A stretch of 64,000 bases of DNA. Origin: Candidatus Hydrogenedentes bacterium ADurb.Bin170 (GTDB taxonomy: Bacteria > Hydrogenedentota > Hydrogenedentia > Hydrogenedentales > CAITNO01). This document shows, piece after piece, positions 5,775 through 44,692 of this stretch. Location: the NCBI GenBank assembly GCA_002070275.1, contig MWCY01000007.1, positions 3,704 to 67,703 on the forward strand, written 5' to 3'. Under the pieces are notes generated by a model. That model worked only from the letters and a program-made list of their open reading frames with translations. It had not been told where the DNA came from and searched no databases. Position numbers and translations under genes: made by a program. Every line of letters starts with the position of its first letter. The stretch's first letter is position 1.

Positions 5775-6422
5775 TTATGCCTGAAAATCCTGAACAGCCA
5801 GAGCGAAACCGCTTTCTTCAGCCAGAGCAGCGACCGCTGTGACCGGATTTGTTCTTTCCGCAAAGACGCCCCCGCTTAGCATATACGCACAAGCACTCTC
5901 CGCAGATGTTGCCGGAAATGCATCAAAACGTTCCGGGCAGATGAAATTTTCTTCATAGGTGGCAAGATGCCACTGGAAGCCGTTTTTCAGCGCTATCCGC
6001 TCTACCTGAAGTCCGTCATGACGCACAACAGCAAGCCACCCCTCGTCACTGCGCTTGTCGACAACGGCGCTGATGCGTGGCGTATTGTAGTCATCTTTTT
6101 CATAGTCCATAGAAAAAGAGGTCAGAATCAGGGCATCCCGTGCGGACATCCCTCCTGCCATCTTTTCCGCGATGAAGTCAGTCTGTCCGCCGTTGGTAAC
6201 AACAGCAACAGCACCGTCACAAACAATGCGCACACAGTTGTAGGCGATATAGGGATTTTTAAAAATATCACTTTCAAACCCCGGCTTGGGCACGATGCTG
6301 ACTTTTCCATTACCCACAACAGCGCTCCGATTGGGAAAAGAGCGGCTTGACACACGATAGGCGGCGCAGAGCTGCCCGTCTGCTGTTTTTCCGACACTTA
6401 CAATTCTTCCTACATACATCAT
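5775..6422 (-). CDS. purO: IMP cyclohydrolase, archaeal PurO-type (PF07826-like)
   Basis: The N-terminus MYVGRIVSVG...YRVSSRSFPNR matches my recollection of PurO N-termini (MYLGRI.AVG...YRVSSRSFPNR). The start was moved to the internal Met at 6422, which has a GGGAGA ribosome-binding site; the ORF track extends it to 6452. The gene lies between an adenosine-kinase-like gene and purB. Confidence 0.6.
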   Translation of the reverse strand: MMYVGRIVSVGKTADGQLCAAYRVSSRSFPNRSAVVGNGKVSIVPKPGFESDIFKNPYIAYNCVRIVCDGAVAVVTNGGQTDFIAEKMAGGMSARDALILTSFSMDYEKDDYNTPRISAVVDKRSDEGWLAVVRHDGLQVERIALKNGFQWHLATYEENFICPERFDAFPATSAESACAYMLSGGVFAERTNPVTAVAALAEESGFALAVQDFQA

Positions 6423-6474
6423 ATGTATCTCCCGTTGTTGCCCGGACTTCATAACAGCGGCCAGGCTAAAAAAG

Positions 6475-7482
6475 TTATCTGTTTTTAAGAGTTGCTTCCG
6501 CCTGTCGGATGCGCGTCCAGCCTTGCGCGTCCGGAGAGGCTCCCAGAGAACGAACAGTTTCTGCTCCTACGTGAGACGCAAATTCCCCGCACATCTCCGG
6601 AGACCAGCCATTTAGATATCCGTAAAGAAATCCGGCCGCCCAGCAGTCACCAGCACCGGTTGTGTCTATTACCCGGGTTACAGGAACGGCATCGACTTTG
6701 CAGCAGGCGTCTTTTGTCCGGATAAGTGCGCCATCTTTACCCAGTTTCACAGCGGCAACCGGTGAACAGGCGTGCAAAGCCCGCAATCCTTCTTCCGGAT
6801 CCGGATTTCCAGAAAATGCTGCTGCTTCATCTTCATTGGCAAAGACAATTTCGACATAGTGTTTCAGGAGATCCGGCAGGACATCCATGCTGTCCCGAAC
6901 CACTTCAAAGGAGGCAAGATCTATGCTTACTGTGCAGCCGGCTGCTTTTGCCATTTGCAGCAGATGGAACACATATTCACAGTTAAACAGCCCGTAGCCT
7001 TCCAGGTGCACATGTCTGCACTGCTGAAAATCCCGGTCGCTGACATCGGACTTCCCTATCAGCATGGCTGCGCCCAGATCAGTACGCATCGTGCGCTCTC
7101 CATCGGGAGTGATCAGGCTCAGGCATCGGCCTGTAGGGCTGGTGTCATCATACTTGAAGCTGTCTTCAACACCGCCCGAAGCTGTAAAAGCAGCTCGATA
7201 TGCATCACCGTCCGCATCTCTGCCGATTTTTCCAAGAAGTGCCACCGGCATGCCCAGCCGCCCTAAAGCAGCGACGGTGTTTGCCGCACTGCCGCCCAGG
7301 GCACGCTGTGGCGGTTCAGGCATTTGCGCCAGAAGCGCATCCATTTCATCGTGCTTTATCCATTCCATGCCACCTTTAGCTCCTGAAATCTTTTCAAGAA
7401 AAGAATCGGGAACCGGGGCAAGGATGTCCATGATGGGTGAGCCAACCCCCAGAATTCGGGATGCCGTAGGGGTGTCTGTCAT
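6475..7482 (-). CDS. PfkB-family ribokinase-like sugar/nucleoside kinase, possibly adenosine kinase
   Basis: 335 aa with the PfkB signature DTTGAGD near the C-terminus. Its stop overlaps the metK start by 4 bp (ATGA). The adenosine-kinase guess is an inference from its position between metK and the purine genes. Confidence 0.65.
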   Translation of the reverse strand: MTDTPTASRILGVGSPIMDILAPVPDSFLEKISGAKGGMEWIKHDEMDALLAQMPEPPQRALGGSAANTVAALGRLGMPVALLGKIGRDADGDAYRAAFTASGGVEDSFKYDDTSPTGRCLSLITPDGERTMRTDLGAAMLIGKSDVSDRDFQQCRHVHLEGYGLFNCEYVFHLLQMAKAAGCTVSIDLASFEVVRDSMDVLPDLLKHYVEIVFANEDEAAAFSGNPDPEEGLRALHACSPVAAVKLGKDGALIRTKDACCKVDAVPVTRVIDTTGAGDCWAAGFLYGYLNGWSPEMCGEFASHVGAETVRSLGASPDAQGWTRIRQAEATLKNR

Positions 7483-8666
7483 TTTCCGACTGCCTGACGC
7501 AAGGCATCGGCCTTGTCTGTTTTTTCCCAGGGGAAAAGATCACGTCCGAAATGACCGTAATTGGAGGTGTCACGGTAGCACCAGCCCTGCGGCTTTGCCA
7601 GACTCAGTTCAGCCATAATCTGGGCAGGCCGGAAATCAAAGAGACCGGAGTTCTCGAGTACACGCTGGAGCACAGTGTCCTCGACTTTGCCAGTGCCGAA
7701 AGTTGACACGTTAATGCTCATAGGCTCGGCAACACCGATCGCATAAGCCACTTGAATCTCACATTTTCTGGCAAGTCCGGCCGCGACAATATTTTTGGCT
7801 GCATAGCGGCTGTAATAGGCGGCACTTCTATCAACCTTTGTCGGATCTTTGCCGGAAAAGGCGCCGCCACCATGGGAGCCGACTCCGCCGTAGCTGTCCA
7901 CAATAATCTTACGCCCCGTGAGACCGGAGTCGCCATGGGGACCACCTATGACAAAACGTCCGGTGGGGTTCACATGATACTTTGTGTCGTTGTCGAGAAG
8001 TCCCGTAGCACCCAGAACCTGCTGCGCCACATCAATCATATCTTTACGAATCTGTTCCAGCGGAACATCTTCTGTCTGATGGGAAATTACAACCGTTGTG
8101 ATTTTGGCAGGCTTTCCATTTTCGTACAGAATGGATACCTGAGATTTGGAGTCAGGACGCAAATAAGCAATCTCCCCCGCTTTTCTGATGCGGGCAAGCT
8201 CAATAAGCAGATTGTGGCTGTATTGCAGAGGAGCAGGCATCAGCTGCGGCGTGTCGTCGCAGGCATAACCGAACATCATGCCCTGATCGCCTGCACCCTG
8301 TTCTTTATGTGTTTCTTCGTTTGTATTGACCCCCATGGCGATATCGGCGGATTGCTGATGAAGCCGATTCACATATTGAAAGGTCTTATAAGAGAAACCG
8401 ATATCATCATAAATATAACCAATGTCTTTGACAACAGCCCGTGCCAGACTTTCAGGATCGATGCTGCTCCAGCCTTCACAGCTGATTTCTCCGGCATTTG
8501 CCACGAAATCGGTTGCGGCAAGCGTTTCGCAGCCGACATGGCTGTTTTCGTCTGCGGCAAGGCACGCATCCAGAATCGCATCAGAAATCTGGTCGCAAAC
8601 CTTATCCGGATGTCCCTCGGAAACAGATTCAGAGGTAAAAACATGGGAGCTTAGCAATTTACTCAT
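7479..8666 (-). CDS. metK: S-adenosylmethionine synthetase
   Basis: MetK signatures are present: GHPDK near the N-terminus and the GGGAFSGKDPTKVDRSAAY loop. The start was set to the internal Met at 8666, which has an AGGAAAGAAG ribosome-binding site. The ORF-track start at 8801 would add 45 non-conserved residues. Confidence 0.92.
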   Translation of the reverse strand: MSKLLSSHVFTSESVSEGHPDKVCDQISDAILDACLAADENSHVGCETLAATDFVANAGEISCEGWSSIDPESLARAVVKDIGYIYDDIGFSYKTFQYVNRLHQQSADIAMGVNTNEETHKEQGAGDQGMMFGYACDDTPQLMPAPLQYSHNLLIELARIRKAGEIAYLRPDSKSQVSILYENGKPAKITTVVISHQTEDVPLEQIRKDMIDVAQQVLGATGLLDNDTKYHVNPTGRFVIGGPHGDSGLTGRKIIVDSYGGVGSHGGGAFSGKDPTKVDRSAAYYSRYAAKNIVAAGLARKCEIQVAYAIGVAEPMSINVSTFGTGKVEDTVLQRVLENSGLFDFRPAQIMAELSLAKPQGWCYRDTSNYGHFGRDLFPWEKTDKADALRQAVGK

Positions 8667-8998
8667 GAGAACTTCTTTCCTGTTCTGGTTACTGAAAATA
8701 AAAATCTCGGCAAATGTCGAAACCTGTAAAAAGAAGGTAATGAACCGGTGCCTATCGGAAATACTGTAACGCCGCTCAGCCTTGAAAGATTCGGCGCACA
8801 CTGTACAGCCATTTTATACCATAACATAAGGTGTGGATAAAAGCCGATTTGACAATAACTGCAATCATGTTTCATACTGAAACAAGCACTTTTCGTAAAA
8901 AATGCCCTGTTATATTGTAAGAGACCATGGCAAATGGTTTTCCAGACCTCAAAGTCTTTAAAACTGGCAGTGCCGCTTTAACAATAAGGAAAAGCTCT

Positions 8999-14072: not shown

Positions 14073-15146
14073 TTATTGCGGAGCAATGCCGCCTTTTTTC
14101 CGTCCTCCGGGCCCGGTTCCGGGAATACGACCGATTCGCCTGATCCTCCCTTTCATACAGGCGTGGCAGTCCTCGGCCGCTTCGTCAATACATGCTTTGG
14201 CTGGGTATATTTCGTAGAGGGCTCTGTATTGGGGCGGCGTGAGGTTGGGCATGACAATGTTTGCACCTCTTGATAACCCCAGTTCCCTGCCCAGCGCCGT
14301 GTTAATGGTGGCGAGAGCGGTCGTGCTGGGTATATTGGCTTCGGGGCATATCAACCGGGTCAACGCCACTGTTTTATAGGTCATGCCTTCCGTATTGGGC
14401 ACCTGCTCTCCATCAGGAGCCGATTCCAGTTCGCCACGTCCCAGAGGAGTTTCGGGATGGGCTATAAACGGGCCGACGCCGATCATATCAAGATCGAGAT
14501 CTTGAAACAGCAGAATATCCCGGGCAAGGATGGAATAATTCTGACCGGGAATACCTACCATTACACCACTGCCCGCTTCATACCCTAATTGCTTAAGGCG
14601 TCTCAGGATAGCAGGTCTGTCACTGATCTCCTGTCCTTTCGCAGGCGGATGAATACGCTCGTAAAGCGCTCTGTCGGAAGTTTCAAAACGAAGAAGATAG
14701 CGATCTGCTCCGGCAGTGCGCCACTCGATCAGGTCTTCGTCCGGGCGTTCCCCCAGACTCAGGGTGACAGCGAGGTTAGTTTCCTTTTTAATGGTTTTTA
14801 TGATTTCAGCCAGCCAGTCGCGCTTGATACCGTAGTCTTCTCCTGCCTGAAGTACCACGGTTCCATATTCAAACCCTACAGCCTTGTGCGCACAGGAAAG
14901 AATTTCGTCCCTGGTGAGGCGGTAGCGCTCTACACTGCCATGTCCTGCGCGCAGTCCGCAATAGGCGCAGGCACGGATACAGTAGTTGGAAATTTCGATC
15001 AGACCGCGAAGGTGTACCTGATCTCCCACATGGCGGCGCCGGGTCTCGTCCGCCGCAGCCCATAACAGTTTTAAACGCTCCGGATCTGTTTCGCGGAGCC
15101 ATCCTTCGATTTCTTCCTGACTTTTATGTTGGAGAAAATCAGACAT
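14073..15146 (-). CDS. hydE: [FeFe]-hydrogenase maturase HydE (radical SAM, BioB-like)
   Basis: 357 aa with a CxxxCxxC motif (CIRACAYCGLR) and BioB/HydE-like length. An extra C-terminal Cys pair is present (DCHAC). It sits immediately downstream of hydF. Confidence 0.7.
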   Translation of the reverse strand: MSDFLQHKSQEEIEGWLRETDPERLKLLWAAADETRRRHVGDQVHLRGLIEISNYCIRACAYCGLRAGHGSVERYRLTRDEILSCAHKAVGFEYGTVVLQAGEDYGIKRDWLAEIIKTIKKETNLAVTLSLGERPDEDLIEWRTAGADRYLLRFETSDRALYERIHPPAKGQEISDRPAILRRLKQLGYEAGSGVMVGIPGQNYSILARDILLFQDLDLDMIGVGPFIAHPETPLGRGELESAPDGEQVPNTEGMTYKTVALTRLICPEANIPSTTALATINTALGRELGLSRGANIVMPNLTPPQYRALYEIYPAKACIDEAAEDCHACMKGRIRRIGRIPGTGPGGRKKGGIAPQ

Positions 15147-15199: not shown

Positions 15200-16456
15200 T
15201 TACGCTTCAGTGTTTTTTGCCTTCAAATACAATTTGTGCTTCTCATAGGCCGCCAGTGCATCAGGAAAAGGCTCAAGAGCCCGTTCAAAGATACCGAGAC
15301 TGTACGCAATAGTCAATCCGTAATTAGTAACAGGAATACCTGCTTTCCTGCAACGGAGAAGCCGGTTCAGCATGGCACGGCGATTGGTGACGCAAGCGCC
15401 ACAATGGATAACCAGTTTGTAAGGGCTGAGATCCATTTTGAAGTCATGTCCCTGTACCGAATCAAAGATAAGTTCGCCTTGAACATATTTCATAAGCCAC
15501 TGTGGAATTTTAACACGGCCTATGTCATCTTCTATCGGATGATGGCTGCATGATTCTGCAATCAGCACCCGGTCGCCCGGTTTGAGACTGTCAATAGCCA
15601 GAGCGCCTTCCACCTGAGTAACCAGATCGCCGCGATATCTTGAAAAAAGAATCGAAAAACCCGTCATTGGAATATGAGAAGGGGTATCTGCCGCTACTTT
15701 TAAAAACGCCTGCGAATCCGTTACTACCAGTTTAGGCGGCTCTTTTAATTTGGCGAGTGTAGCCGCAAGCCCCTTGTCTGTTGTCACCAGGCAGGACGCA
15801 TCTCCGTCCAGAAGGTCCCGGATGCTTTGCACCTGAGGCATAATCAATCGCCCTTTAGGCGCTTCTTTATCGATGGGTGTTACCAGTACTGCCAGCTCAC
15901 CGGCGCCCACCAGGTCACGGAGGATCACCGGTTGCTCGACAAAATCCGCTGGTGCACTATCCAATAAGGCCTGCCTGAAGTCACCCAGTCCTTCTCCGGT
16001 AATAGTGCTGAGGCAGAGCGAAGCAATTTTTCTTGCAGAAAGCATGTTCAGAAGTGCCGTATCCGGGCGTTTTATATCTGATTTATTAAAAACGGCAATA
16101 ACGGGTACTTTCCGCTGGTCCAATTCTGAAAAGAGCATCTCTTCATAAGCGCCCCACTCACCTTCCTGGCAAACGATGACACCGAGATCGACCCGCTCGA
16201 AAACAGCCCTGGTTCTTTCTTTCCTGAGTTCGCCCAGGGTGCCCTCGTCGTCGAGCCCTGCCGTGTCGATAAAAAGGACCGGCCCAAGTGGCAGCAACTC
16301 CATCGCTTTTTCTACCGGATCCGTAGTGGTGCCGGCCACAGGAGAAACAATGGACACCTGCTGTGCCGTTACAGCATTGAGCAGACTGGATTTTCCTGCA
16401 TTGCGCCTTCCGAAAAGACCGATATGAAGACGCATCGATTTAGGGGTGCTTCGCAT
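15200..16456 (-). CDS. hydF: [FeFe]-hydrogenase maturation GTPase HydF
   Basis: N-terminal GTPase P-loop (GRRNAGKSSLLNA). C-terminal cluster motif ESCSHHP...(about 46 aa)...HCGAC, as in HydF. An alternative start at 16435 is possible. Confidence 0.85.
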   Translation of the reverse strand: MRSTPKSMRLHIGLFGRRNAGKSSLLNAVTAQQVSIVSPVAGTTTDPVEKAMELLPLGPVLFIDTAGLDDEGTLGELRKERTRAVFERVDLGVIVCQEGEWGAYEEMLFSELDQRKVPVIAVFNKSDIKRPDTALLNMLSARKIASLCLSTITGEGLGDFRQALLDSAPADFVEQPVILRDLVGAGELAVLVTPIDKEAPKGRLIMPQVQSIRDLLDGDASCLVTTDKGLAATLAKLKEPPKLVVTDSQAFLKVAADTPSHIPMTGFSILFSRYRGDLVTQVEGALAIDSLKPGDRVLIAESCSHHPIEDDIGRVKIPQWLMKYVQGELIFDSVQGHDFKMDLSPYKLVIHCGACVTNRRAMLNRLLRCRKAGIPVTNYGLTIAYSLGIFERALEPFPDALAAYEKHKLYLKAKNTEA

Positions 16457-26000: not shown

Positions 26001-26035
26001 CCGTTTCAGTGTGTCCGGAAGCAAGATAACAGCGC

Positions 26036-26311
26036 TCAGCTGTGATCAAAAATCATTTCCTGCACTTCTATGCCCTCAATGCTGTTCAGCTTGTCGCGAA
26101 GTGCTTCACACCGGGCGATGTCACCAAACATTTCGAGCAGCAGAATGCCTCCTGTTGCACAGAATTGCTCATCCACCTCGTGCAGACCGAGGCGCGTTTT
26201 AATAAAACATCCGTACTCTGTCAGCAGCTGCTGCACACGCACGGCATTTTCCCCGCGGTTCTGGACGTGTACACCGTAAATAATGTGTCGATCTTTCATA
26301 AAACCTCCCAT
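26036..26311 (-). CDS. small ACT-like protein resembling the TM1266-type 'iron-only hydrogenase system regulator' family
   Basis: About 90 aa, immediately downstream of hydG, which is the known TM1266-hydG linkage. The sequence has beta-alpha-beta ACT-like character. The family assignment is from memory and was not searched. Confidence 0.5.
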   Translation of the reverse strand: MGGFMKDRHIIYGVHVQNRGENAVRVQQLLTEYGCFIKTRLGLHEVDEQFCATGGILLLEMFGDIARCEALRDKLNSIEGIEVQEMIFDHS

Positions 26312-26367
26312 GACCCTTTGGCGGAAAGTAAACTGGTTAAAGCGACAACTTGCGCTTATCCTGCTTA

Positions 26368-27762
26368 TTATACATAAACATCCCGGTCGCCGGCACGTAC
26401 TTTCCTGACAACGGTGCTCGCCCGTTCTTTTCGAGTGGGCGGTTGTTCTTCTATAATCCGGTCAATAAGTTCATTCCCGACTTCTTGTGTAGCCGGTGAT
26501 GCGAAGTGCTCCAGAAATTCTGCGAAAGTGCTCAGGGCATTGATTTCACAATAATGTTTTATGAGCCCCGGCTTGGCGAGATCCATAAAGTCTTTGCCGG
26601 TTCTGCCCAGACGGTAGCAGCCTGTGCAGAAGGAAGGGATATATCCAAGGTGGGCGATATCTTCTACCACTTCATCCAGTGACCGGTGATCTCCGAGAGA
26701 AAACTGGCTCATATCATAGCTTTCCTCGTGATACCCGCCCGGATTGGTGCGGCTTCCCGCAGAAATCTGCGATACACCTAAAGCCAGCGCTTCCCGCCGC
26801 ATTTCCGGATTTTCACGGGTGGAAAGAATGATCCCGGTATAAGGCACGGTTAAACGAAGAATGGCAATCAGTTTTCTGAAATCCTTGTCGCTCACAGGAA
26901 CAGGAGGGTGTTCTGACAGATCAGAGCCCACAGCCGGTTCAATGCGGGGTACGCTGATGGTATGACAGCCTACGCCAAATCGCTCTTCCAGATGGGTGTT
27001 ATGCTGAAGTAAAGCCAGCAATTCAAAGCGCCAGTCATACAGTCCGAAAAGCACGCCGATTCCGACATCATCAATGCCGGCGAGCATGGCACGATCCATC
27101 GCCGTGATTCTCCAGTCAAAGTCCCGTTTTTTCCCTGAGAGGTGTACTTTGCTGTACGTGTCCCGATGGTAGGTTTCCTGAAAGAGCTGGTAGGTGCCTA
27201 TGCGCCGGTCTTTAAGCCCCTGAAATTCATCAAGAGTAAGAGGTGCCAGGTTGACATTGATGCGGCGCACTTCTCCCCACTCTGATTTCGTGTTATAGAT
27301 AGTATCGATACACTTAAAGGCGTATTCGATACCTTCCCGCGGATAGGACTCCCCGGCAACGAGCAGAATGCGTTTATGCCCCTGATTGATGATGATGCGC
27401 GTTTCTTCCGCTACTTCTTCCTGAGACAGAGCGCGGCGTTTTACGGCTTTATTTTTTGATCGAAACGCGCAGTAGGTGCAGTCATTGGCACAAAGATTGG
27501 ACACATACAGAGGGGCAAATAAAACCAGGCGCCGTCCGTATATTTCCATTTTTGCTTTGCGGGCAGTTTCAAAAAGTTCTTCTTCCAGCTCCTGGGACTG
27601 AATGCGCATCAGAGCGGCAACATCATCCGCATTAAGCCCCTTCAACTCAAGGGCCTTGGCAAGTACTTCCCGAATATGGGCATGATCCTCGCTGGAATGA
27701 TCCAATGCATTTTGAATGGCATCTTCGTCAATTGTTACTGTTCCATACAGTTCATCGCTCAT
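26368..27762 (-). CDS. hydG: [FeFe]-hydrogenase maturase HydG (radical SAM tyrosine lyase, ThiH-like)
   Basis: N-terminal CANDCTYCAF radical-SAM motif. A C-terminal CTGCYR...(22 residues)...HYC second-cluster motif distinguishes HydG from ThiH. Confidence 0.88.
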   Translation of the reverse strand: MSDELYGTVTIDEDAIQNALDHSSEDHAHIREVLAKALELKGLNADDVAALMRIQSQELEEELFETARKAKMEIYGRRLVLFAPLYVSNLCANDCTYCAFRSKNKAVKRRALSQEEVAEETRIIINQGHKRILLVAGESYPREGIEYAFKCIDTIYNTKSEWGEVRRINVNLAPLTLDEFQGLKDRRIGTYQLFQETYHRDTYSKVHLSGKKRDFDWRITAMDRAMLAGIDDVGIGVLFGLYDWRFELLALLQHNTHLEERFGVGCHTISVPRIEPAVGSDLSEHPPVPVSDKDFRKLIAILRLTVPYTGIILSTRENPEMRREALALGVSQISAGSRTNPGGYHEESYDMSQFSLGDHRSLDEVVEDIAHLGYIPSFCTGCYRLGRTGKDFMDLAKPGLIKHYCEINALSTFAEFLEHFASPATQEVGNELIDRIIEEQPPTRKERASTVVRKVRAGDRDVYV

Positions 27763-27888
27763 AAAAAAGTCTCCAGCATACCCCTAAGTTTCTGCATTGT
27801 TGGCAAAAACACAGCTCACGATTCAACTAACATCATTTTAGAAAATAATATGCCTGTTCTTATTCCAAATGCAATTTTTCCGGAAAGA

Positions 27889-28680
27889 TCAGAAGGCACC
27901 AATCGGTGACAGCGCAGCTGTCTGCTTCCAGTAGTCGCTTCCGCGGAGGACAGTACCTTTCTGCCGCCAAAAGAAATCTACGTGCGCAGAATGACGCATG
28001 TCACGGCGTTTAAAAATGGTGAAGGGATAGTGTTGATCTTTCACAGCCGTCGTTGCATCTTCAAATTCGGCAGAGCTGATCGACAATTCTTCAGCCGACT
28101 TTGCCCCTCCCCTGCCCGCCGGAAGAAAACGGTAAAGATGCCAGGCATGAAGTATTCCGCCTGTCTGTACATAATCCGCAAGAAACGCACCGAGGGTATG
28201 CAGATTGGCAACGGTATGACGTGTAACAACAGTGGATACAGTGACAGACCGTTCTGCTTCTTTCAATTGGGCAAGGCGGTTCATAATAATTTGAAAATGC
28301 CCCCCGATCTGATGAGGAAAATGGCGTACACGGTTGTGCTCTGTCCGGGTGGTACCATCCAGAGGAAGCACATAACGGTCAACACAGTCGGGGTAGGCAG
28401 CGCCATCAGGCATTTTAATTCCGTTGGTGCCCACCTGAACAAGAAAGCCTTTGCTTTTTGCAATTTTTGCCGCATTGTGAAGTCCGTAGGGCCAGGTAAA
28501 GGGCTCGCCGCCACCGATTACAATATTTGTAAATCCTGCTTTTTCTAGTACAGTCAGTGTTTCAGCGAAATCATCCGGTGTCATGCATTCAACTGCATTA
28601 TCTGTAATGCAAAATTTGCAAAACATATCGCACGACCCGTGCAGCATAACAACAGCTATATTTTTTTCGTGAAGGTGCAT
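27889..28680 (-). CDS. small radical-SAM protein of PflA/NrdG-activase size, without a SPASM domain
   Basis: CxxxCxxC motif (CDMFCKFC), with GGGEPF and VGTNG motifs. Only 263 aa, with no C-terminal Cys clusters. It lies directly upstream of hydG on the same strand. Confidence 0.7.
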   Translation of the reverse strand: MHLHEKNIAVVMLHGSCDMFCKFCITDNAVECMTPDDFAETLTVLEKAGFTNIVIGGGEPFTWPYGLHNAAKIAKSKGFLVQVGTNGIKMPDGAAYPDCVDRYVLPLDGTTRTEHNRVRHFPHQIGGHFQIIMNRLAQLKEAERSVTVSTVVTRHTVANLHTLGAFLADYVQTGGILHAWHLYRFLPAGRGGAKSAEELSISSAEFEDATTAVKDQHYPFTIFKRRDMRHSAHVDFFWRQKGTVLRGSDYWKQTAALSPIGAF

Positions 28681-28736: not shown

Positions 28737-30032
28737 CTATTCTGCAGCAGTCTGCACCGCTTCTGCTGCGGCAGGGGTTGAGGAGGCAACCGTTGGCGCC
28801 TGCTGTGTGTTGGGATCCAAAGTCTCCACGATTTCAACGGGCGTGGCGCGTACCACGAGATCGTACAGTTCTTCCACATCTTCATTCAGCATACGCGCAC
28901 AACCTTTGGACGCAAAAGAGCCTATTGTTTCCGGAGCGATTGTTCCGTGTATCCCGAGATCTCTGGGAAGGCCTTCTGCTGCCGGTTCAAGAGGCATCCA
29001 TCGGGTACCCAACTCATTATCAGGGGCATTGGCTGCAATAGGACCCGCCCCGGGCTTATGCCAAACGGGGTCTTTCTGCTTGGTTCCAATCGTATATTTT
29101 CCCAAAGTCGTCTCATGTCCTGGTTTGCCCAGGCCGGTTTTATAGCGCTTGAAAATACCTTTATTATCCATCAGGTAAAGAGAGCAGGTACTTCTTTCAA
29201 TAATGATGGAAAAATCTTTTGGTGTATATTTTAAACGCTGTCCGAGAGACAGTTTTTCTGGGGATGTAATGGAATTGGCTTCCATTAAGAGCCCCTGTGT
29301 GGTATTCAGTTTAATACCTATACTGTTGAGATTATCCCCTTTTTCTACCGTGTAAATCTTACTTTCCGGGGTTTCCTGGGGCGAAAAAATGAGTGCCACA
29401 TTCAGCGGTCCCAGCATGTCGATCGCTTCGTTCCATACGACAGTGCCCCATGGTGAGTCTTCAGCAGCACGCCGTGCCAGATCTCTTGCTCCAACGAGGT
29501 TTCCCGCCCGCTGATCAAGTCGCGCCAGACCCAGATAGCCGAGCGAACGGATTTCTGCAGGAGCATGATCTCGGATGGATTCGTAGATATCCCGGGCTTC
29601 TGCTGTTCGGCTCATTTCTTCAAGTTGCCGTGCTTTTCTTGCCTGCAGGTAGGGATATTCAGGACTGCTTTTAAAAGCATCACAAGCTGCGGTAAGATTT
29701 GCCAGCGCTGTTTCCGGCTGGTTCTTGTAGTGCAGAATATCTGCTTCCAGAATAATGGCTCGGGGTGTTGTCAGAGGATTCCGTCCTTTAAGAAGCGGTT
29801 TTATTTGTGCCATTGCTTCGTCATAGTTGCCGGATGCCACATTTTTTTGCGCCTGCTGCAGGACTTCCAGTCCGTCACTGCTTACTGGCAGGACTACAGG
29901 AAAGGCCTCTTTTGTTTTAGAGAGGAGATAAGGGGCGGCAATAATCACAGCCATGACGGCAGCAACGACCAGAGCGATAATAAAAAGTCCGGGTTCCCAA
30001 CGTGATTTTTTACTGAAAATCCGTTTTTTCAT
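28737..30032 (-). CDS. membrane-anchored L,D-transpeptidase (YkuD) with TPR and LysM domains
   Basis: N-terminal transmembrane helix, TPR-like repeats, a LysM motif (YTVEKGDNLNSIGIKLNTTQGLL), and the YkuD catalytic motif (GIHGT...SKGCARM). Confidence 0.8.
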   Translation of the reverse strand: MKKRIFSKKSRWEPGLFIIALVVAAVMAVIIAAPYLLSKTKEAFPVVLPVSSDGLEVLQQAQKNVASGNYDEAMAQIKPLLKGRNPLTTPRAIILEADILHYKNQPETALANLTAACDAFKSSPEYPYLQARKARQLEEMSRTAEARDIYESIRDHAPAEIRSLGYLGLARLDQRAGNLVGARDLARRAAEDSPWGTVVWNEAIDMLGPLNVALIFSPQETPESKIYTVEKGDNLNSIGIKLNTTQGLLMEANSITSPEKLSLGQRLKYTPKDFSIIIERSTCSLYLMDNKGIFKRYKTGLGKPGHETTLGKYTIGTKQKDPVWHKPGAGPIAANAPDNELGTRWMPLEPAAEGLPRDLGIHGTIAPETIGSFASKGCARMLNEDVEELYDLVVRATPVEIVETLDPNTQQAPTVASSTPAAAEAVQTAAE

Positions 30033-41962: not shown

Positions 41963-44692
41963 TTGGCAACCTCGGATTCTAAAGACAAAAAGGAATTGTC
42001 CTTTTTTATTCTTTTTCTAGTGCTGGGTCTGTTTTTCCTGTCGGGTGCCTGCTCCCTTGTGTATCAGGTCGTATGGACCCGGAAGCTGGCACTGCTTTTC
42101 GGTGTCACCTCCCATGCTGTAAGCACCGTCCTGAGTGTTTTTTTTCTGGGGCTTGGTGCAGGCAGTTTTGCTGGCGGACGGATTGCCGACCGAAGCAGGC
42201 ATCCGCTGCGGCTTTACGGTCTTTTTGAATGCATTGTCGGGGTGAGCGCTGTCCTGGTGCTTTTGCTGCTCTCTGTCAGTGAGTCCTGGATCCCGACTGC
42301 ACTCCGGCTCTTTGATTTTTCCAGAACCACAGGCGTTCTTTTACGCGCAATACTGAGCTTTCTTCTTCTCTTTATTCCTGTAAGTCTCATGGGCGCAACC
42401 CTGCCTCTCTTAACACGCTTCGCTGTGCGCGCTCAGGAGAAAACCGGGTTTCACGTCAGTATTCTCTATGCAGTGAATACTTTCGGCGCAGTTGCCGGGT
42501 GCGCCACAGCAGGCTTCGTGCTGATTGCGTCTCTGGGATTTTCAAAAACTGTATATCTTGCCGCTGCCCTTAATATAGGCGCCGGACTGGCTGCCGTTCT
42601 GCTCTCTCTGTTGAAGGAGCCTTTAACGCAATCGGCGGTTCCCGAAAACGATAATGCTACACCGGGGTGTGGCAGCCGGGGTGGTGCCGGTCCGATGCGG
42701 CTGCTGATATTTGCAACGGCACTTTGCGGCTTTTGCGGGCTTGCCGCTGAAGTAGTGTACACGCGGCTCCTTTCCATTGTTTTTCTGGGAACCACTTACG
42801 CCTTCACCACTATGCTGACAGCATTTCTTTGCGGTATTGGCGCTGGTGGCGGTTGCGCCGCTCTGATCCAGCGGAAAATGCGCAAAGAAAATGCGCTGCT
42901 TCTTGTGGGGCTTATTTCGGGCGGTATAGCTGTTGCCATGCTCTGGAGTCTTCCGTGGATTGCTGGACTTCCGGACCGTTTTCTTGACCTTCAGCGCAGC
43001 ACCGGGCTTGTGTGGGATGCCACACTGCGCGGCACCTTTTTTCTTGCCTTTCTAACATTATTTCCCATGACTTTTCTTTTTGGAGTGGCATTTCCTCTGG
43101 TCATCGGGGCGGGCGGATTATGGCGAAAATCAGTGGGCAGTCTGGTGGGACTGATGAACGGCGCCAATACGCTGGGCGGTGTTGCCGGTGCGATGGCGGG
43201 CGGCTTTTTTCTTCTGCCTTTGCTGGGGAGCCAGAACAGCATAACCTTCCTCGCAGTTCTTTTGCTGGTAAATGGTCTTGCCTTGATTGTACTGGGCAGA
43301 ACATCGGGTAAAAGTATCCGGGTCTCAATCGCTTCAATACTTCTTCTTTGTTTTTTTGTTACATTCCTTTTTTTGCCTGCGGACGTGAATCTGGCTTTAA
43401 ATAAAGGATATATGCCCCGGGATCATGAAGTGCTTTATATGAAGGAAGGCACAGAAGGAACCGTTGCCGTGAGCGGTCCCGTTGGTGCACAGCATGGCGA
43501 AGACCGGGTTTTATGGATTAACCGGGTGCAGGCGACCACTTCCATTGAACGGGGCGTTAAAATGAACCGTTTGCAGGGCGTTTTGCCGCTTCTTTTTGAT
43601 CGAACCTGCGAGCGGGTTCTCTTCATGTGCTTTGGATCCGGCATTACCTGCGGTACGCTCGCACTCTCGCCCTTTGAACAGATCGATGCGGTAGAGATTA
43701 GTCCGGAAGTACTCGCAGTAGCTCCATACTTTGATAAAGACAATCTGGGTGTCCTCTACAATCCGGCTGTTTCTTTTCATATTGATGACGGCAGAAATTA
43801 TCTGCTCAGAACAGACCGGAAATATGACCTCATTACCTTTGAACCCATGCCACTGGCGCTGGCAGGTGTCTCCACTTTTTACACAGAAGAGTACTATCGT
43901 TTGTGCCGAAAATGTCTTGCTTCTGGCGGCATCGTATCTCAATGGATCCCTTTGCACAGCAATGACCCTGAAATGGTGAGATCGCTGGTGTTTACTTTTA
44001 TCTCCGCTTATCCTGAATATTGTGCGTTTTTTGTCAATGCGGATCTTTTTCTGCTGGGGTCGGACATGCCGTTGCGCCTGAATTATGCCAAGGCAAAGGA
44101 ACGGCTGAAAAATTCTGTTCTTGCAGATGCGCTGGAAAAATCCGGGCTTGGTGATCTCGCTGAAATTATGTCCTTCTATCTCTTTGATAAACAGGCACTG
44201 GATGCTTACGTATCCGGGGGTGTCAGTATGAGCGATGATCTGCCCTGGGCGGAGTTTACCGCGCCCCGGCTTGTCTATGCCCGTCTTGTGCCTGAAGCGG
44301 TAGATACTCTTTTGCCTTTTATCAGCAATCCGCTGGAAGCAGTGATTCCCGGGAGTATTACTGCTGAAGAACGCCAGCGCCTGGAAAGACGCTGCCACTC
44401 CCGCCGCCTTGATTTTCCTGCATTGAAAGAATATTACGGAGGCAGCATGTTTGATGACAGGGCGGCCGATGGTTTCGCTGCCTCTCTCGAAGCTGATCCG
44501 GAAAATCTGAATGCGCGCTATTACCTGAAAACGATTGTGCTGGCACAGGGAGAGCGTTTTCTTCAGTGGGATGACTGGGAGCGGGTTATAGCCCTTACGG
44601 GGAAAGCACTTCGCTTCATGCCGGATGATAAGGATTTGACTGAACTTTATCAGGCGGCGGAGCAAAAGAGAGACTTGTCTGCGGGCAGATAA
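41963..44692 (+). CDS. fused polytopic membrane (MFS-like) / spermidine-synthase-like / TPR protein
   Basis: At least 12 N-terminal transmembrane helices. The central region (VLFMCFGSGITCGTLA...EISPEVL...DLITFEP) resembles the PABS/SpeE fold. The C-terminal repeats are TPR-like. The likely start is TTG 41963 with a GGGAG ribosome-binding site. Confidence 0.7.
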   Translation: MATSDSKDKKELSFFILFLVLGLFFLSGACSLVYQVVWTRKLALLFGVTSHAVSTVLSVFFLGLGAGSFAGGRIADRSRHPLRLYGLFECIVGVSAVLVLLLLSVSESWIPTALRLFDFSRTTGVLLRAILSFLLLFIPVSLMGATLPLLTRFAVRAQEKTGFHVSILYAVNTFGAVAGCATAGFVLIASLGFSKTVYLAAALNIGAGLAAVLLSLLKEPLTQSAVPENDNATPGCGSRGGAGPMRLLIFATALCGFCGLAAEVVYTRLLSIVFLGTTYAFTTMLTAFLCGIGAGGGCAALIQRKMRKENALLLVGLISGGIAVAMLWSLPWIAGLPDRFLDLQRSTGLVWDATLRGTFFLAFLTLFPMTFLFGVAFPLVIGAGGLWRKSVGSLVGLMNGANTLGGVAGAMAGGFFLLPLLGSQNSITFLAVLLLVNGLALIVLGRTSGKSIRVSIASILLLCFFVTFLFLPADVNLALNKGYMPRDHEVLYMKEGTEGTVAVSGPVGAQHGEDRVLWINRVQATTSIERGVKMNRLQGVLPLLFDRTCERVLFMCFGSGITCGTLALSPFEQIDAVEISPEVLAVAPYFDKDNLGVLYNPAVSFHIDDGRNYLLRTDRKYDLITFEPMPLALAGVSTFYTEEYYRLCRKCLASGGIVSQWIPLHSNDPEMVRSLVFTFISAYPEYCAFFVNADLFLLGSDMPLRLNYAKAKERLKNSVLADALEKSGLGDLAEIMSFYLFDKQALDAYVSGGVSMSDDLPWAEFTAPRLVYARLVPEAVDTLLPFISNPLEAVIPGSITAEERQRLERRCHSRRLDFPALKEYYGGSMFDDRAADGFAASLEADPENLNARYYLKTIVLAQGERFLQWDDWERVIALTGKALRFMPDDKDLTELYQAAEQKRDLSAGR

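Follow-up and report, generated by a model that had tools for sequence, protein, structure and literature searches.

What is a gene for a small radical-SAM protein doing immediately upstream of hydG? In the window (the whole 64,000-nucleotide stretch of DNA that was analyzed, from Candidatus Hydrogenedentes bacterium ADurb.Bin170), the minus strand carries, in this order, a gene for a 263-aa radical-SAM protein (hereafter rSAM), a spacer of 126 bp, hydG, a gap of 56 bp, and a gene for a 91-aa TM1266-like protein. A first-pass annotation of this DNA had left two explanations side by side, a fourth accessory enzyme of H-cluster biosynthesis and an unrelated passenger gene. If rSAM were a maturation factor, the current view that HydE, HydF, and HydG make up the whole pathway would need revising. 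The features that bear on the question are as follows.

27889..28680, minus strand: gene for the 263-aa single-cluster radical-SAM protein (rSAM), with CX3CX2C at C17/C21/C24; unnamed family, viperin-like fold
27763..27888, minus strand: 126-bp rSAM-hydG spacer, from the rSAM stop to the hydG start, with a GGAG ribosome-binding site before the hydG ATG
26368..27762, minus strand: hydG, radical-SAM maturase of the [FeFe]-hydrogenase H-cluster, 464 aa (TIGR03955; Radical_SAM and BATS domains)
26036..26311, minus strand: gene for the CPF_0552-family (TM1266-like) small protein, 91 aa (NF052672)
26043..26029: terminator-like hairpin after the 91-aa gene, from the terminator scan
28737..30032, minus strand: gene for a TPR-LysM-YkuD L,D-transpeptidase (Ldt; Pfam YkuD, LysM, TPR)
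15200..16456, minus strand: hydF, GTPase scaffold of H-cluster assembly (PF18133, PF18128, MMR_HSR1)
14073..15146, minus strand: hydE, second radical-SAM maturase of the H-cluster (Radical_SAM domain; identity to HydE of locus L011)

Organization of the hydG locus

The rSAM gene is intact and lies where it was first annotated, on the same strand as hydG. Because several metagenomes yielded the same contig independently, the arrangement is no assembly accident. On the other side, the Ldt gene ends 56 bp upstream of rSAM as the final member of a block of MoxR, Ser/Thr kinase (STK), and Ldt genes. The promoter and terminator scan gave no signal in either spacer; on the minus strand, the 126-bp spacer lacks both sigma-70-like and terminator-like sites, and Rfam returned zero matches in the window, this spacer included. 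The spacer aligns with locus L007 only and not with the hydG leaders of group B (defined below); an alignment of hydG leader regions from six loci contained no conserved element outside the window/L007 pair.

HydG of the window scores 502.8 bits against TIGR03955 (cutoff 312.15) and is thereby a member of that family. Its N-terminal CX3CX2C motif reads CANDCTYC, and the C-terminal cluster that had been recognized earlier is present as CTGC-X22-C, the CX2CX22C dangler-cluster motif. The 91-aa protein passes the cutoff of NF052672 CPF_0552_fam (97.9 bits, cutoff 85) and stays under those of TIGR03959 TM1266 (26.9 bits, cutoff 60.8) and Pfam PF21699 (21 bits, cutoff 27). Judged by these profile scores, the protein is TM1266-like only in a broad sense, so the earlier label stands as a general likeness and not as membership in the TM1266 family. 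A CPF_0552-type gene follows hydG in all hydG-linked relatives whose contig extends past hydG, as well as in three of the four sister operons. Approximately 10 kb from hydG, the window also harbors hydF, whose product is 73% identical to HydF of L011; the window HydE is 71% identical over 350 aa to HydE of the intact L011 operon. The hyd system of the organism is ordinary, with hydG and the small CPF_0552 protein at this site and hydF-hydE 10 kb off.

Sequence, family, and fold of rSAM

rSAM contains the motifs C17-D-M-F-C21-K-F-C24, GGGEPF, and VGTNG, all of which had been read correctly from the sequence (the first as CDMFCKFC). It scores 39.4 bits against Pfam PF04055 (cutoff 29.5), which places it in the radical-SAM superfamily. 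Searches against Pfam and NCBIfam, which the first-pass annotation had proposed, lead to the superfamily and stop there: PF04055 is the sole Pfam model that passes, none of the curated family cutoffs (NrdG, PflA-type, QueE, HydE, MoaA, viperin) is reached, and the best NCBIfam matches, to AhbD, NirJ2, viperin, and MoaA, are partial and well under cutoff. Of its five cysteines, only C17, C21, and C24 are conserved across 28 family members. A SPASM or twitch domain is absent, as had been noted, since PF13186 gives no match and the protein ends at 263 aa.

The proteins most closely related to rSAM form a discrete, unnamed family of ~250 to 290 aa with one CX3CX2C cluster, and literature searches returned no description of it. 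The family profile collects ~40 full-length clusters (at 50% identity) that score above 235 bits, whereas the next radical-SAM proteins score ~120 bits. Members are found in Hydrogenedentota, Planctomycetota, Acidobacteriota, Omnitrophota, and other phyla. The invariant basic and polar residues of the family are R102, H115, R119, H128, R135, H178, H181, Y183, R190, K224, R225, and H230. The window protein retains all family-invariant residues, so neofunctionalization is not indicated. The gene is under purifying selection, with dN/dS being a rough estimate at saturated dS. Compared with L007, rSAM is 66% identical with a dN of 0.27, whereas the neighboring genes are 80 to 85% identical with a dN of 0.10 to 0.16; the rSAM gene has thus evolved two to three times faster than its neighbors.

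rSAM takes on a partial-barrel fold that most resembles viperin, in which a conserved C-terminal β-hairpin and helix close the barrel; both the partial barrel and the C-terminal extension that are expected of a viperin fold are therefore present. Viperin is the best match by fold and the best PDB profile match. Taken together, sequence profile and fold put rSAM closest to viperin and to MoaA/AhbD-type cores. PflA-AE and QueE, with which a fold comparison had been suggested, rank lower, and the initial view of rSAM as a PflA/NrdG-sized activase is not supported.

Linkage of rSAM and hydG in relatives

Genome and metagenome scans yielded 169 rSAM loci with 145 distinct sequences. hydG occurs in the flanks (within 10 kb) only at loci whose rSAM shares 49% identity or more with the window protein, and it is absent from the surroundings of all 128 loci where this identity falls below 47%. 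In a neighbor-joining tree, the hydG-linked loci fall into one monophyletic Hydrogenedentota clade of 13 distinct sequences, 11 of which show the proximity; the two without hydG are L089 and L092. Two gene orders can be differentiated in the clade. In group A, the order is MoxR-STK-Ldt-rSAM-hydG-CPF0552, with rSAM and hydG on the same strand and 99 to 349 bp apart; the block precedes rSAM in L007, L010, L087, L088, and L093 to L098. In group B, the order is rSAM, a reverse-strand methyltransferase gene, and hydG-...-hydE. The opposite-strand methyltransferase gene stands between rSAM and hydG in L008, L009, L011, and L172, where the hyd operon hydG-CPF0552-aspA-hydF-hydE begins at hydG.

The next-closest Hydrogenedentota hydG loci (68 to 70% identity; L170, L171, and L173) are organized as hydG-aspA-hydF(-hydE). 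A small ORF comes after hydG in two of them, L170 and L171, and the region upstream contains hydA or hox genes in L173 and L171. The rSAM gene is absent from all three of these sister operons. Two of the genomes keep a family member elsewhere: in JADHEF01 it lies ~39 kb from hydG on one contig (L108 versus L170), and in JBMFRC01 the two genes are on separate contigs (L059 versus L173). A dedicated maturation gene would be expected to show conserved linkage to, or co-occurrence with, hydE, hydF, or hydG across lineages that have [FeFe]-hydrogenase; the linkage is confined to one clade. The neighborhood comparison that had been proposed as a check therefore turned out against a hydG-associated family.

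Other neighbors of the family

An all-versus-all BLASTP clustering of the ORFs from 81 loci gave no neighbor family common to more than six loci. Among 117 immediate neighbors scanned with Pfam, class-I methyltransferases alone were enriched (14 genes), and an HMM derived from the neighbors detected a methyltransferase at 35 of the 169 loci, nearly always on the opposite strand. The methyltransferases of three lineages are ~30% identical over the Rossmann core and match differing generic NCBIfam models, for which reason they are not taken as a single orthologous partner, and this candidate was set aside.

The tight same-strand neighbors in other clades are heterogeneous and include a 709-aa rSAM protein, PFOR, an RNB (RNase II/R-type) exoribonuclease, a HemN-like protein, a hexapeptide transferase, and an AAA_14/DUF4143 protein.

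Competing explanations

An accessory role would make rSAM a lineage-specific fourth radical-SAM component of H-cluster maturation that is co-transcribed with hydG and CPF_0552, with a task such as the synthesis or repair of a ligand precursor or of a HydG substrate. The shared strand, the spacer without a terminator-like site, and a proximity that is kept in most of the clade and in two flanking contexts speak for this role. The same observations weigh against a passenger gene, as drift might erode more of the order, and the short same-strand distances of group A are compatible with co-transcription. An accessory role is nonetheless improbable. hydG is missing near all distant family members, an opposite-strand gene splits the pair in group B, sister operons do without rSAM even where the genome keeps it, and the unchanged set of invariant residues gives no sign of a new function. 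Moreover, a fully defined in vitro system of HydE, HydF, HydG, glycine-cleavage components, and NfuA yields fully active [FeFe]-hydrogenase, so maturation works without a fourth radical-SAM enzyme (PMC12501116). A published analysis of hyd neighborhoods points to ammonia-lyases (PMC11736057). It is very unlikely that rSAM instead works with the upstream block of MoxR ATPase, Ser/Thr kinase, and Ldt, for example in envelope functions or signaling, with its gene at the end of that operon. The gap between Ldt and rSAM measures 48 to 56 bp in the window and in L007 and L010, and all group-A loci (rSAM 49 to 67% identical to the window protein) share the order MoxR-STK-Ldt-rSAM, but the block is missing upstream of rSAM in group B, L089, and all other clades, and YkuD, kinase, and MoxR genes are not enriched among the neighbors elsewhere.

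The remaining alternatives start from the protein itself. A true prokaryotic viperin, that is, an antiviral enzyme making ddh-nucleotides, would agree with the best fold and PDB profile matches and with the PADLOC pVip models (53.8 bits in a library without curated cutoffs; E 5e-15). However, rSAM scores 40.6 bits against NF038283 viperin_w_prok, for which the cutoff is 180, and TIGR04278 (viperin) does not appear in its list of 25 NCBIfam families. The low identity and altered substrate-facing strands described below, together with a gene that is conserved in single copy and sits in stable housekeeping neighborhoods, not in defense islands or beside nucleotide kinases, make this assignment highly doubtful. 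That rSAM is an activase of the PflA/NrdG type or QueE, with its partner gene elsewhere in the genome, is barely credible: its size and N-terminal CX3CX2C resemble activases, and weak matches to NrdG2 (22 bits) and QueE (18.8 bits) exist, but neither an assignment to TIGR02495 and relatives with an accompanying glycyl-radical enzyme nor one to TIGR03963 or TIGR04349 with que context was found. Among the window ORFs scanned, glycyl-radical enzymes, nrdD, and que genes are absent, as had been observed before. The first-pass annotation had named, as evidence against an accessory role, a confident match to NrdG, PflA, or QueE in combination with homologs beside nrdD, pfl, or que genes and not conserved beside hydG. 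Half of this was found: there is no such match and the homologs do not sit beside those genes, but the hydG linkage is indeed not conserved outside one lineage.

Given the linkage in one clade and the sister operons without the gene, the adjacency is best read as lineage-specific synteny. rSAM is probably a functional stand-alone enzyme of a discrete, uncharacterized family that stands next to hydG by inherited gene order and not through a role in H-cluster assembly; the passenger gene is thus the favored one of the two original alternatives.

Proposed function and implications

As in viperin, BlsE, and MoaA, the stand-alone enzyme would reductively cleave SAM to the 5′-deoxyadenosyl radical, which would then abstract a hydrogen from the substrate, a small soluble molecule inside the barrel. 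The fold and the invariant basic and polar residues, and these only, suggest that the substrate is anionic, perhaps phosphate-bearing or nucleotide-like. The class-I SAM methyltransferase that lies tail-to-tail or head-to-head with rSAM in several lineages may share its metabolite. The family, often accompanied by such a methyltransferase, may be the source, in Hydrogenedentota, Planctomycetota, and Acidobacteriota, of a modified small molecule or nucleotide that has yet to be described.

With the evidence opposing a maturation role, hydrogenase biology is essentially unaffected. The result that remains is a compact, well-conserved single-cluster radical-SAM family from several poorly studied phyla, with a viperin-like fold and outside all curated models. 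Such “minimal viperin-like” enzymes are places to look for new radical chemistry on nucleotides or small molecules. The locus also illustrates that adjacency conserved within one clade is weak evidence for a common function.

Comparison with known radical-SAM enzymes

Viperins (RSAD2 and the prokaryotic pVips; PDB 5vsl, 6q2p, 9dfn, and 7n7i) are 16 to 19% identical to rSAM. In the profile alignment, rSAM has VTVSTVV and HAWHLYR where a viperin-like enzyme has the strands FKLNTVV and RWKVFQ; in viperin, these strands presumably carry the Lys and Arg residues that bind the triphosphate. The substrate-facing strand motifs of rSAM (VTVSTVV, HAWHLYRFxPxGRGG, and KRxDMxHSxxVDFFW) differ from those of viperin. 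Unlike viperin, the family has no defense-island or kinase context and is a single housekeeping-type gene with a wide, vertical-looking distribution.

PflA and NrdG activases and QueE are, like rSAM, small, single-domain radical-SAM proteins, but rSAM scores well under their family cutoffs and they rank lower by fold; none of their partner genes occurs in the neighborhoods examined. BlsE (cytosylglucuronate decarboxylase) and the MoaA/AhbD/NirJ-type cores continue into a C-terminal SPASM/twitch domain or a second cluster, whereas the rSAM family stops at ~260 aa and has no additional conserved cysteines. HydE (TIGR03956) is likewise not in the list of 25 NCBIfam families for rSAM, and the PDB profile match to HydE covers residues 9 to 122 only (E 5e-4). 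What rSAM has in common with HydE and HydG is the radical-SAM superfamily and, in this lineage, genomic proximity.

Organization of the hydG locus

The first-pass annotation described three genes, a small radical SAM (rSAM) gene, hydG and a small TM1266-like gene, and all three are re-found exactly at their positions, on the minus strand.

Genes and spacer of the locus in the window
27889..28680, minus strand: 263-aa rSAM ORF
27763..27888: spacer between the rSAM gene and hydG, 126 bp
26368..27762, minus strand: hydG (TIGR03955; Radical_SAM and BATS domains)
26036..26311, minus strand: 91-aa ORF of the CPF_0552 family, 56 bp beyond hydG
15200..16456, minus strand: hydF, 10 kb from hydG
14073..15146, minus strand: hydE, 10 kb from hydG

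The same gene arrangement is found again in independent ENA, JGI, and Logan metagenome assemblies and is therefore no assembly artefact. Relatives with names put the organism in Candidatus Hydrogenedentota. By its sequence, the window HydG is unambiguous, scoring 502.8 bits on TIGR03955 (cutoff 312) and carrying a C-terminal CTGC-X22-C motif. The description of the 91-aa protein as "TM1266-like" holds loosely, but the protein stays below the cutoffs of TIGR03959 (TM1266; 26.9 bits, cutoff 60.8) and Pfam PF21699 (21 bits, cutoff 27). It passes NCBIfam NF052672, the CPF_0552 family, with 97.9 bits versus a cutoff of 85. Gene callers differ in the start of its gene (91 aa versus 87 aa).

A discrete radical SAM family with a viperin-like fold

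The motifs quoted for the 263-aa protein are present (C17-DMF-C21-KF-C24, GGGEPF, and VGTNG). Its other cysteines, C32 and C98, are not conserved among relatives, and the protein therefore has a single radical SAM cluster without a SPASM or twitch domain. Pfam yields PF04055 only (39 bits), and the 29 NCBIfam matches are weak. The best of them, all partial, are AhbD (53.8 bits, cutoff 500), TIGR04053, NirJ2, prokaryotic viperin (40.6 bits, cutoff 180), and MoaA; HydE is absent among the best 25 of the 29 families.

A search of 5.8 billion proteins (E <= 1e-5) returns 301 relatives, with lengths of 227-316 aa among the 120 listed; among the matches listed, the source names are "radical SAM protein" or "MoaA/NifB/PqqE/SkfB family" only. 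The alignment of 28 diverse members has 43 invariant columns and the invariant motifs CxMxCxFC, GGGEP, VQxGTNG, DRYVLPLD, VTxSTVV, HAWHLYRFxPxGRGG, and KRxDMxHSxxVDFFW. Of 1.84 billion 50%-identity representatives searched with the family profile, ~40 full-length clusters exceed 235 bits, and other rSAM proteins then follow at ~120 bits. For several of the next-nearest small proteins, the best NCBIfam match is prokaryotic viperin, below cutoff. The best nonfamily matches also include giant proteins of 650-1400 aa with two to four tandem rSAM core matches each (P0173, P0175-P0177, P0180, P0182, and similar); of these, P0173 and P0182 were checked and match many SPASM-type maturase models.

AlphaFold2, run on the 28-member alignment, gives a confident model (mean pLDDT 92.1, pTM 0.88). 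Foldseek places mouse viperin and fungal viperin-like enzymes on top of the PDB (TM 0.71-0.73, E ~1e-11, 16-19% identity). A profile search of PDB sequences finds viperin-like enzymes at 1e-11, BlsE at 1e-10, HydE at 5e-4 over the N terminus only, and QueE at 0.02, and the PADLOC pVip models match at 53.8 bits. The 263-aa gene belongs to a discrete, unnamed rSAM family with a viperin-like fold, the discreteness following from the drop from 235 to ~120 bits. The earlier suggestion of a PflA/NrdG-sized activase is not supported, as the NrdG2 (22 bits, cutoff 131) and QueE (18.8 bits, cutoff 260) scores are negligible and viperins are the top fold matches.

Linkage to hydG

The neighborhoods of the family were compared at 169 loci (80 from species-representative genomes, 80 from metagenomes, and look-ups), which represent 145 distinct protein sequences. 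The sources are Hydrogenedentota, Planctomycetota/Phycisphaerae, Acidobacteriota (Holophagaceae, Solibacteraceae, and Vicinamibacteraceae), Omnitrophota, Schekmanbacteria, Fibrobacteria, Spirochaetia, and others. In a tblastn search with the window HydG, flanking hydG genes occur only at loci whose rSAM protein shares at least 49% identity with that of the window; the 128 loci with more distant proteins have none. A neighbor-joining tree unites the hydG-linked loci in one clade, which holds 13 distinct sequences.

Gene order in the hydG-linked clade and at sister Hydrogenedentota hydG loci
Group A (window, L007/L091, L010/L095-97, L087, L088/L128, L093, L094, L098): MoxR - Ser/Thr kinase - TPR/LysM/YkuD L,D-transpeptidase (Ldt) - rSAM - hydG - CPF_0552, single strand throughout
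Group B (L008, L009, L011, L172): rSAM, opposite-strand methyltransferase, then hydG - CPF_0552 - aspA - hydF - hydE
Clade members without hydG (L089, L092): in L089, rSAM, reverse-strand methyltransferase, then rnpA-yidC-jag-mnmE
Sister L170: hydG - 85 aa - aspA - hydF
Sister L171: hox [NiFe] genes - response regulator - hydG - two small ORFs - aspA - hydF - hydE
Sister L173: NuoF-like - hydA - response regulator - hydG - aspA - hydF - hydE

The hyd operon of group B has to begin with hydG; its layout, with aspA, is one already described for hyd operons (PMC11736057). In the reverse direction, HydG relatives of at least 72% identity all seem to belong to the hydG-linked clade, as do those assigned to loci (matched loci P0270/L007, P0279/L088, and P0284/L011, and the looked-up P0283/L172); identity then drops to 65-70%. 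None of the three sister hydG loci inspected in that range has the rSAM gene. Two of these assemblies carry a family gene elsewhere, ~39 kb from hydG on the same 352-kb contig in JADHEF01 (L108 versus L170) and on a different contig in JBMFRC01 (L059 versus L173). The small CPF_0552-type gene is present in two tandem copies at L171 and in none at L173.

The most economical account of the rSAM-hydG adjacency has four steps. In the clade ancestor, an ordinary hydG-CPF0552-aspA-hydF-hydE operon would have been closely preceded by the rSAM gene and its convergent methyltransferase gene, an arrangement that group B would have kept. In group A, the methyltransferase gene and the distal hyd genes would have disappeared from the locus and the MoxR-kinase-Ldt block would have been added upstream. 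L089 and L092 would have lost the whole hyd neighborhood. The adjacency would thus be inherited synteny.

In the window genome, the break in the ancestral hyd operon lies after CPF_0552; the methyltransferase gene once between the rSAM gene and hydG is lost. The operon is intact in the relatives L008, L009, L011, and L172; in the window, hydF and hydE lie ~10 kb from hydG-CPF_0552, and the unrelated genes between encode phosphatase-like, HlyIII, NUDIX/MBL, AAA, GT2, SIS, UDP-glucose dehydrogenase, and trypsin-like protease proteins. A tblastn search with the L011 AspA finds no aspA in the window, and no hydA is present among the large window ORFs scanned with Pfam, a part of all ORFs. A few kb from hydE/hydF, a same-strand run (5775..8801, minus) encodes an IMP-cyclohydrolase-like protein, a PfkB-family kinase, and the SAM synthetase MetK; a link to the recycling of SAM or adenosine is possible, as is coincidence. 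A 909-aa ORF (41963..44692, plus) joins a spermidine/spermine-synthase-like domain to an MFS transporter domain that scores just under the Pfam cutoff.

Other neighbors of the family

A class I SAM methyltransferase gene (~270 aa) abuts the family gene on the opposite strand, tail-to-tail or head-to-head, at 35 of 169 loci in three phyla, among them almost all well-flanked loci in a large clade of Holophagaceae type.

Positions of the methyltransferase gene
L008:1909-2712
L009:2691-3500
L011:10792-11598
L089:8844-9629
L172:4980-5786
Also at L067, L073, L082-L086, L033, L040, and others

The Hydrogenedentota methyltransferase scores best, below cutoff, on a daptide-type RiPP methyltransferase model, and those of Holophagaceae and Planctomycetota on DVU_1556/CpaM. 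Identity between lineages is only ~30%, and orthology is not demonstrable from the sequences. The two enzymes may form a two-step pathway; their neighborhood could be a recurrent pairing or chance.

The other neighbors are heterogeneous. Upstream of the rSAM gene, L172:1748-4971 holds a RiPP-like set (a reverse-strand methyltransferase gene, a 79-aa ORF, a 371-aa radical SAM/SPASM protein, and a 62-aa ORF) that is not seen in the other group B loci. A 709-aa rSAM gene (L044:6941-9070; equivalents in L051, L052, L055, L059, and L063) precedes the family gene in the low-GC Candidatus Hydrogenedens clade, and aspS is convergent downstream. The two rSAM genes lie on the same strand, 3-7 bp apart, and are therefore probably co-transcribed.

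Role of the gene beside hydG

The 263-aa gene is probably a passenger encoding an uncharacterized viperin-fold enzyme, an alternative that the first-pass annotation had raised and that both the forward and the reverse neighborhood tests support. The other proposal of that annotation, a fourth accessory enzyme of H-cluster biosynthesis, is not supported: linkage to hydG is confined to one clade, and the inspected sister hydG loci do without the gene. A defined in vitro system of HydE, HydF, HydG, and general factors gives full [FeFe]-hydrogenase activity (PMC12501116), a reason to expect no fourth dedicated rSAM enzyme.

A hyd role specific to this lineage is very unlikely. Co-transcription of the rSAM gene and hydG may occur in group A, because on the coding strand both spacers lack promoter-like and terminator-like sites and a terminator-like hairpin lies 3′ of the 91-aa gene; Rfam gives no match. 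Among the proteins of the block, the rSAM protein differs most between the window and L007 (66% identity, versus 80-85% for HydG, Ldt, kinase, and MoxR; dN 0.27 versus 0.10-0.16). Its dN/dS of ~0.1, with dS saturated, indicates that purifying selection continues. All family-invariant residues are kept in the window protein, which therefore gives no sign of a new function. The gene matters little for hydrogenase maturation, and its own interest is modest.

Proposed chemistry and comparison with viperin

The enzyme combines one [4Fe-4S]/SAM site with a viperin-type partial barrel that is closed by a conserved C-terminal hairpin and helix. Reductive cleavage of SAM would generate 5′-dA•, which would take a hydrogen from a small substrate inside the barrel. 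The invariant Arg/Lys/His set (R102, R119, R135, R190, K224, R225, H115, H128, H178, H181, and H230) suggests an anionic ligand, which may bear phosphate or resemble a nucleotide.

The scaffold is viperin-like, yet the enzyme is very probably no viperin. In the HMM alignment, the strands FKLNTVV and RWKVFQ of a fungal viperin-like enzyme align with VTVSTVV and HAWHLYR. The equivalents of these two strands in viperin presumably carry the triphosphate-binding Lys and Arg. Set beside these residues, the strand differences suggest that the ligand is probably not bound in the way viperin binds CTP.
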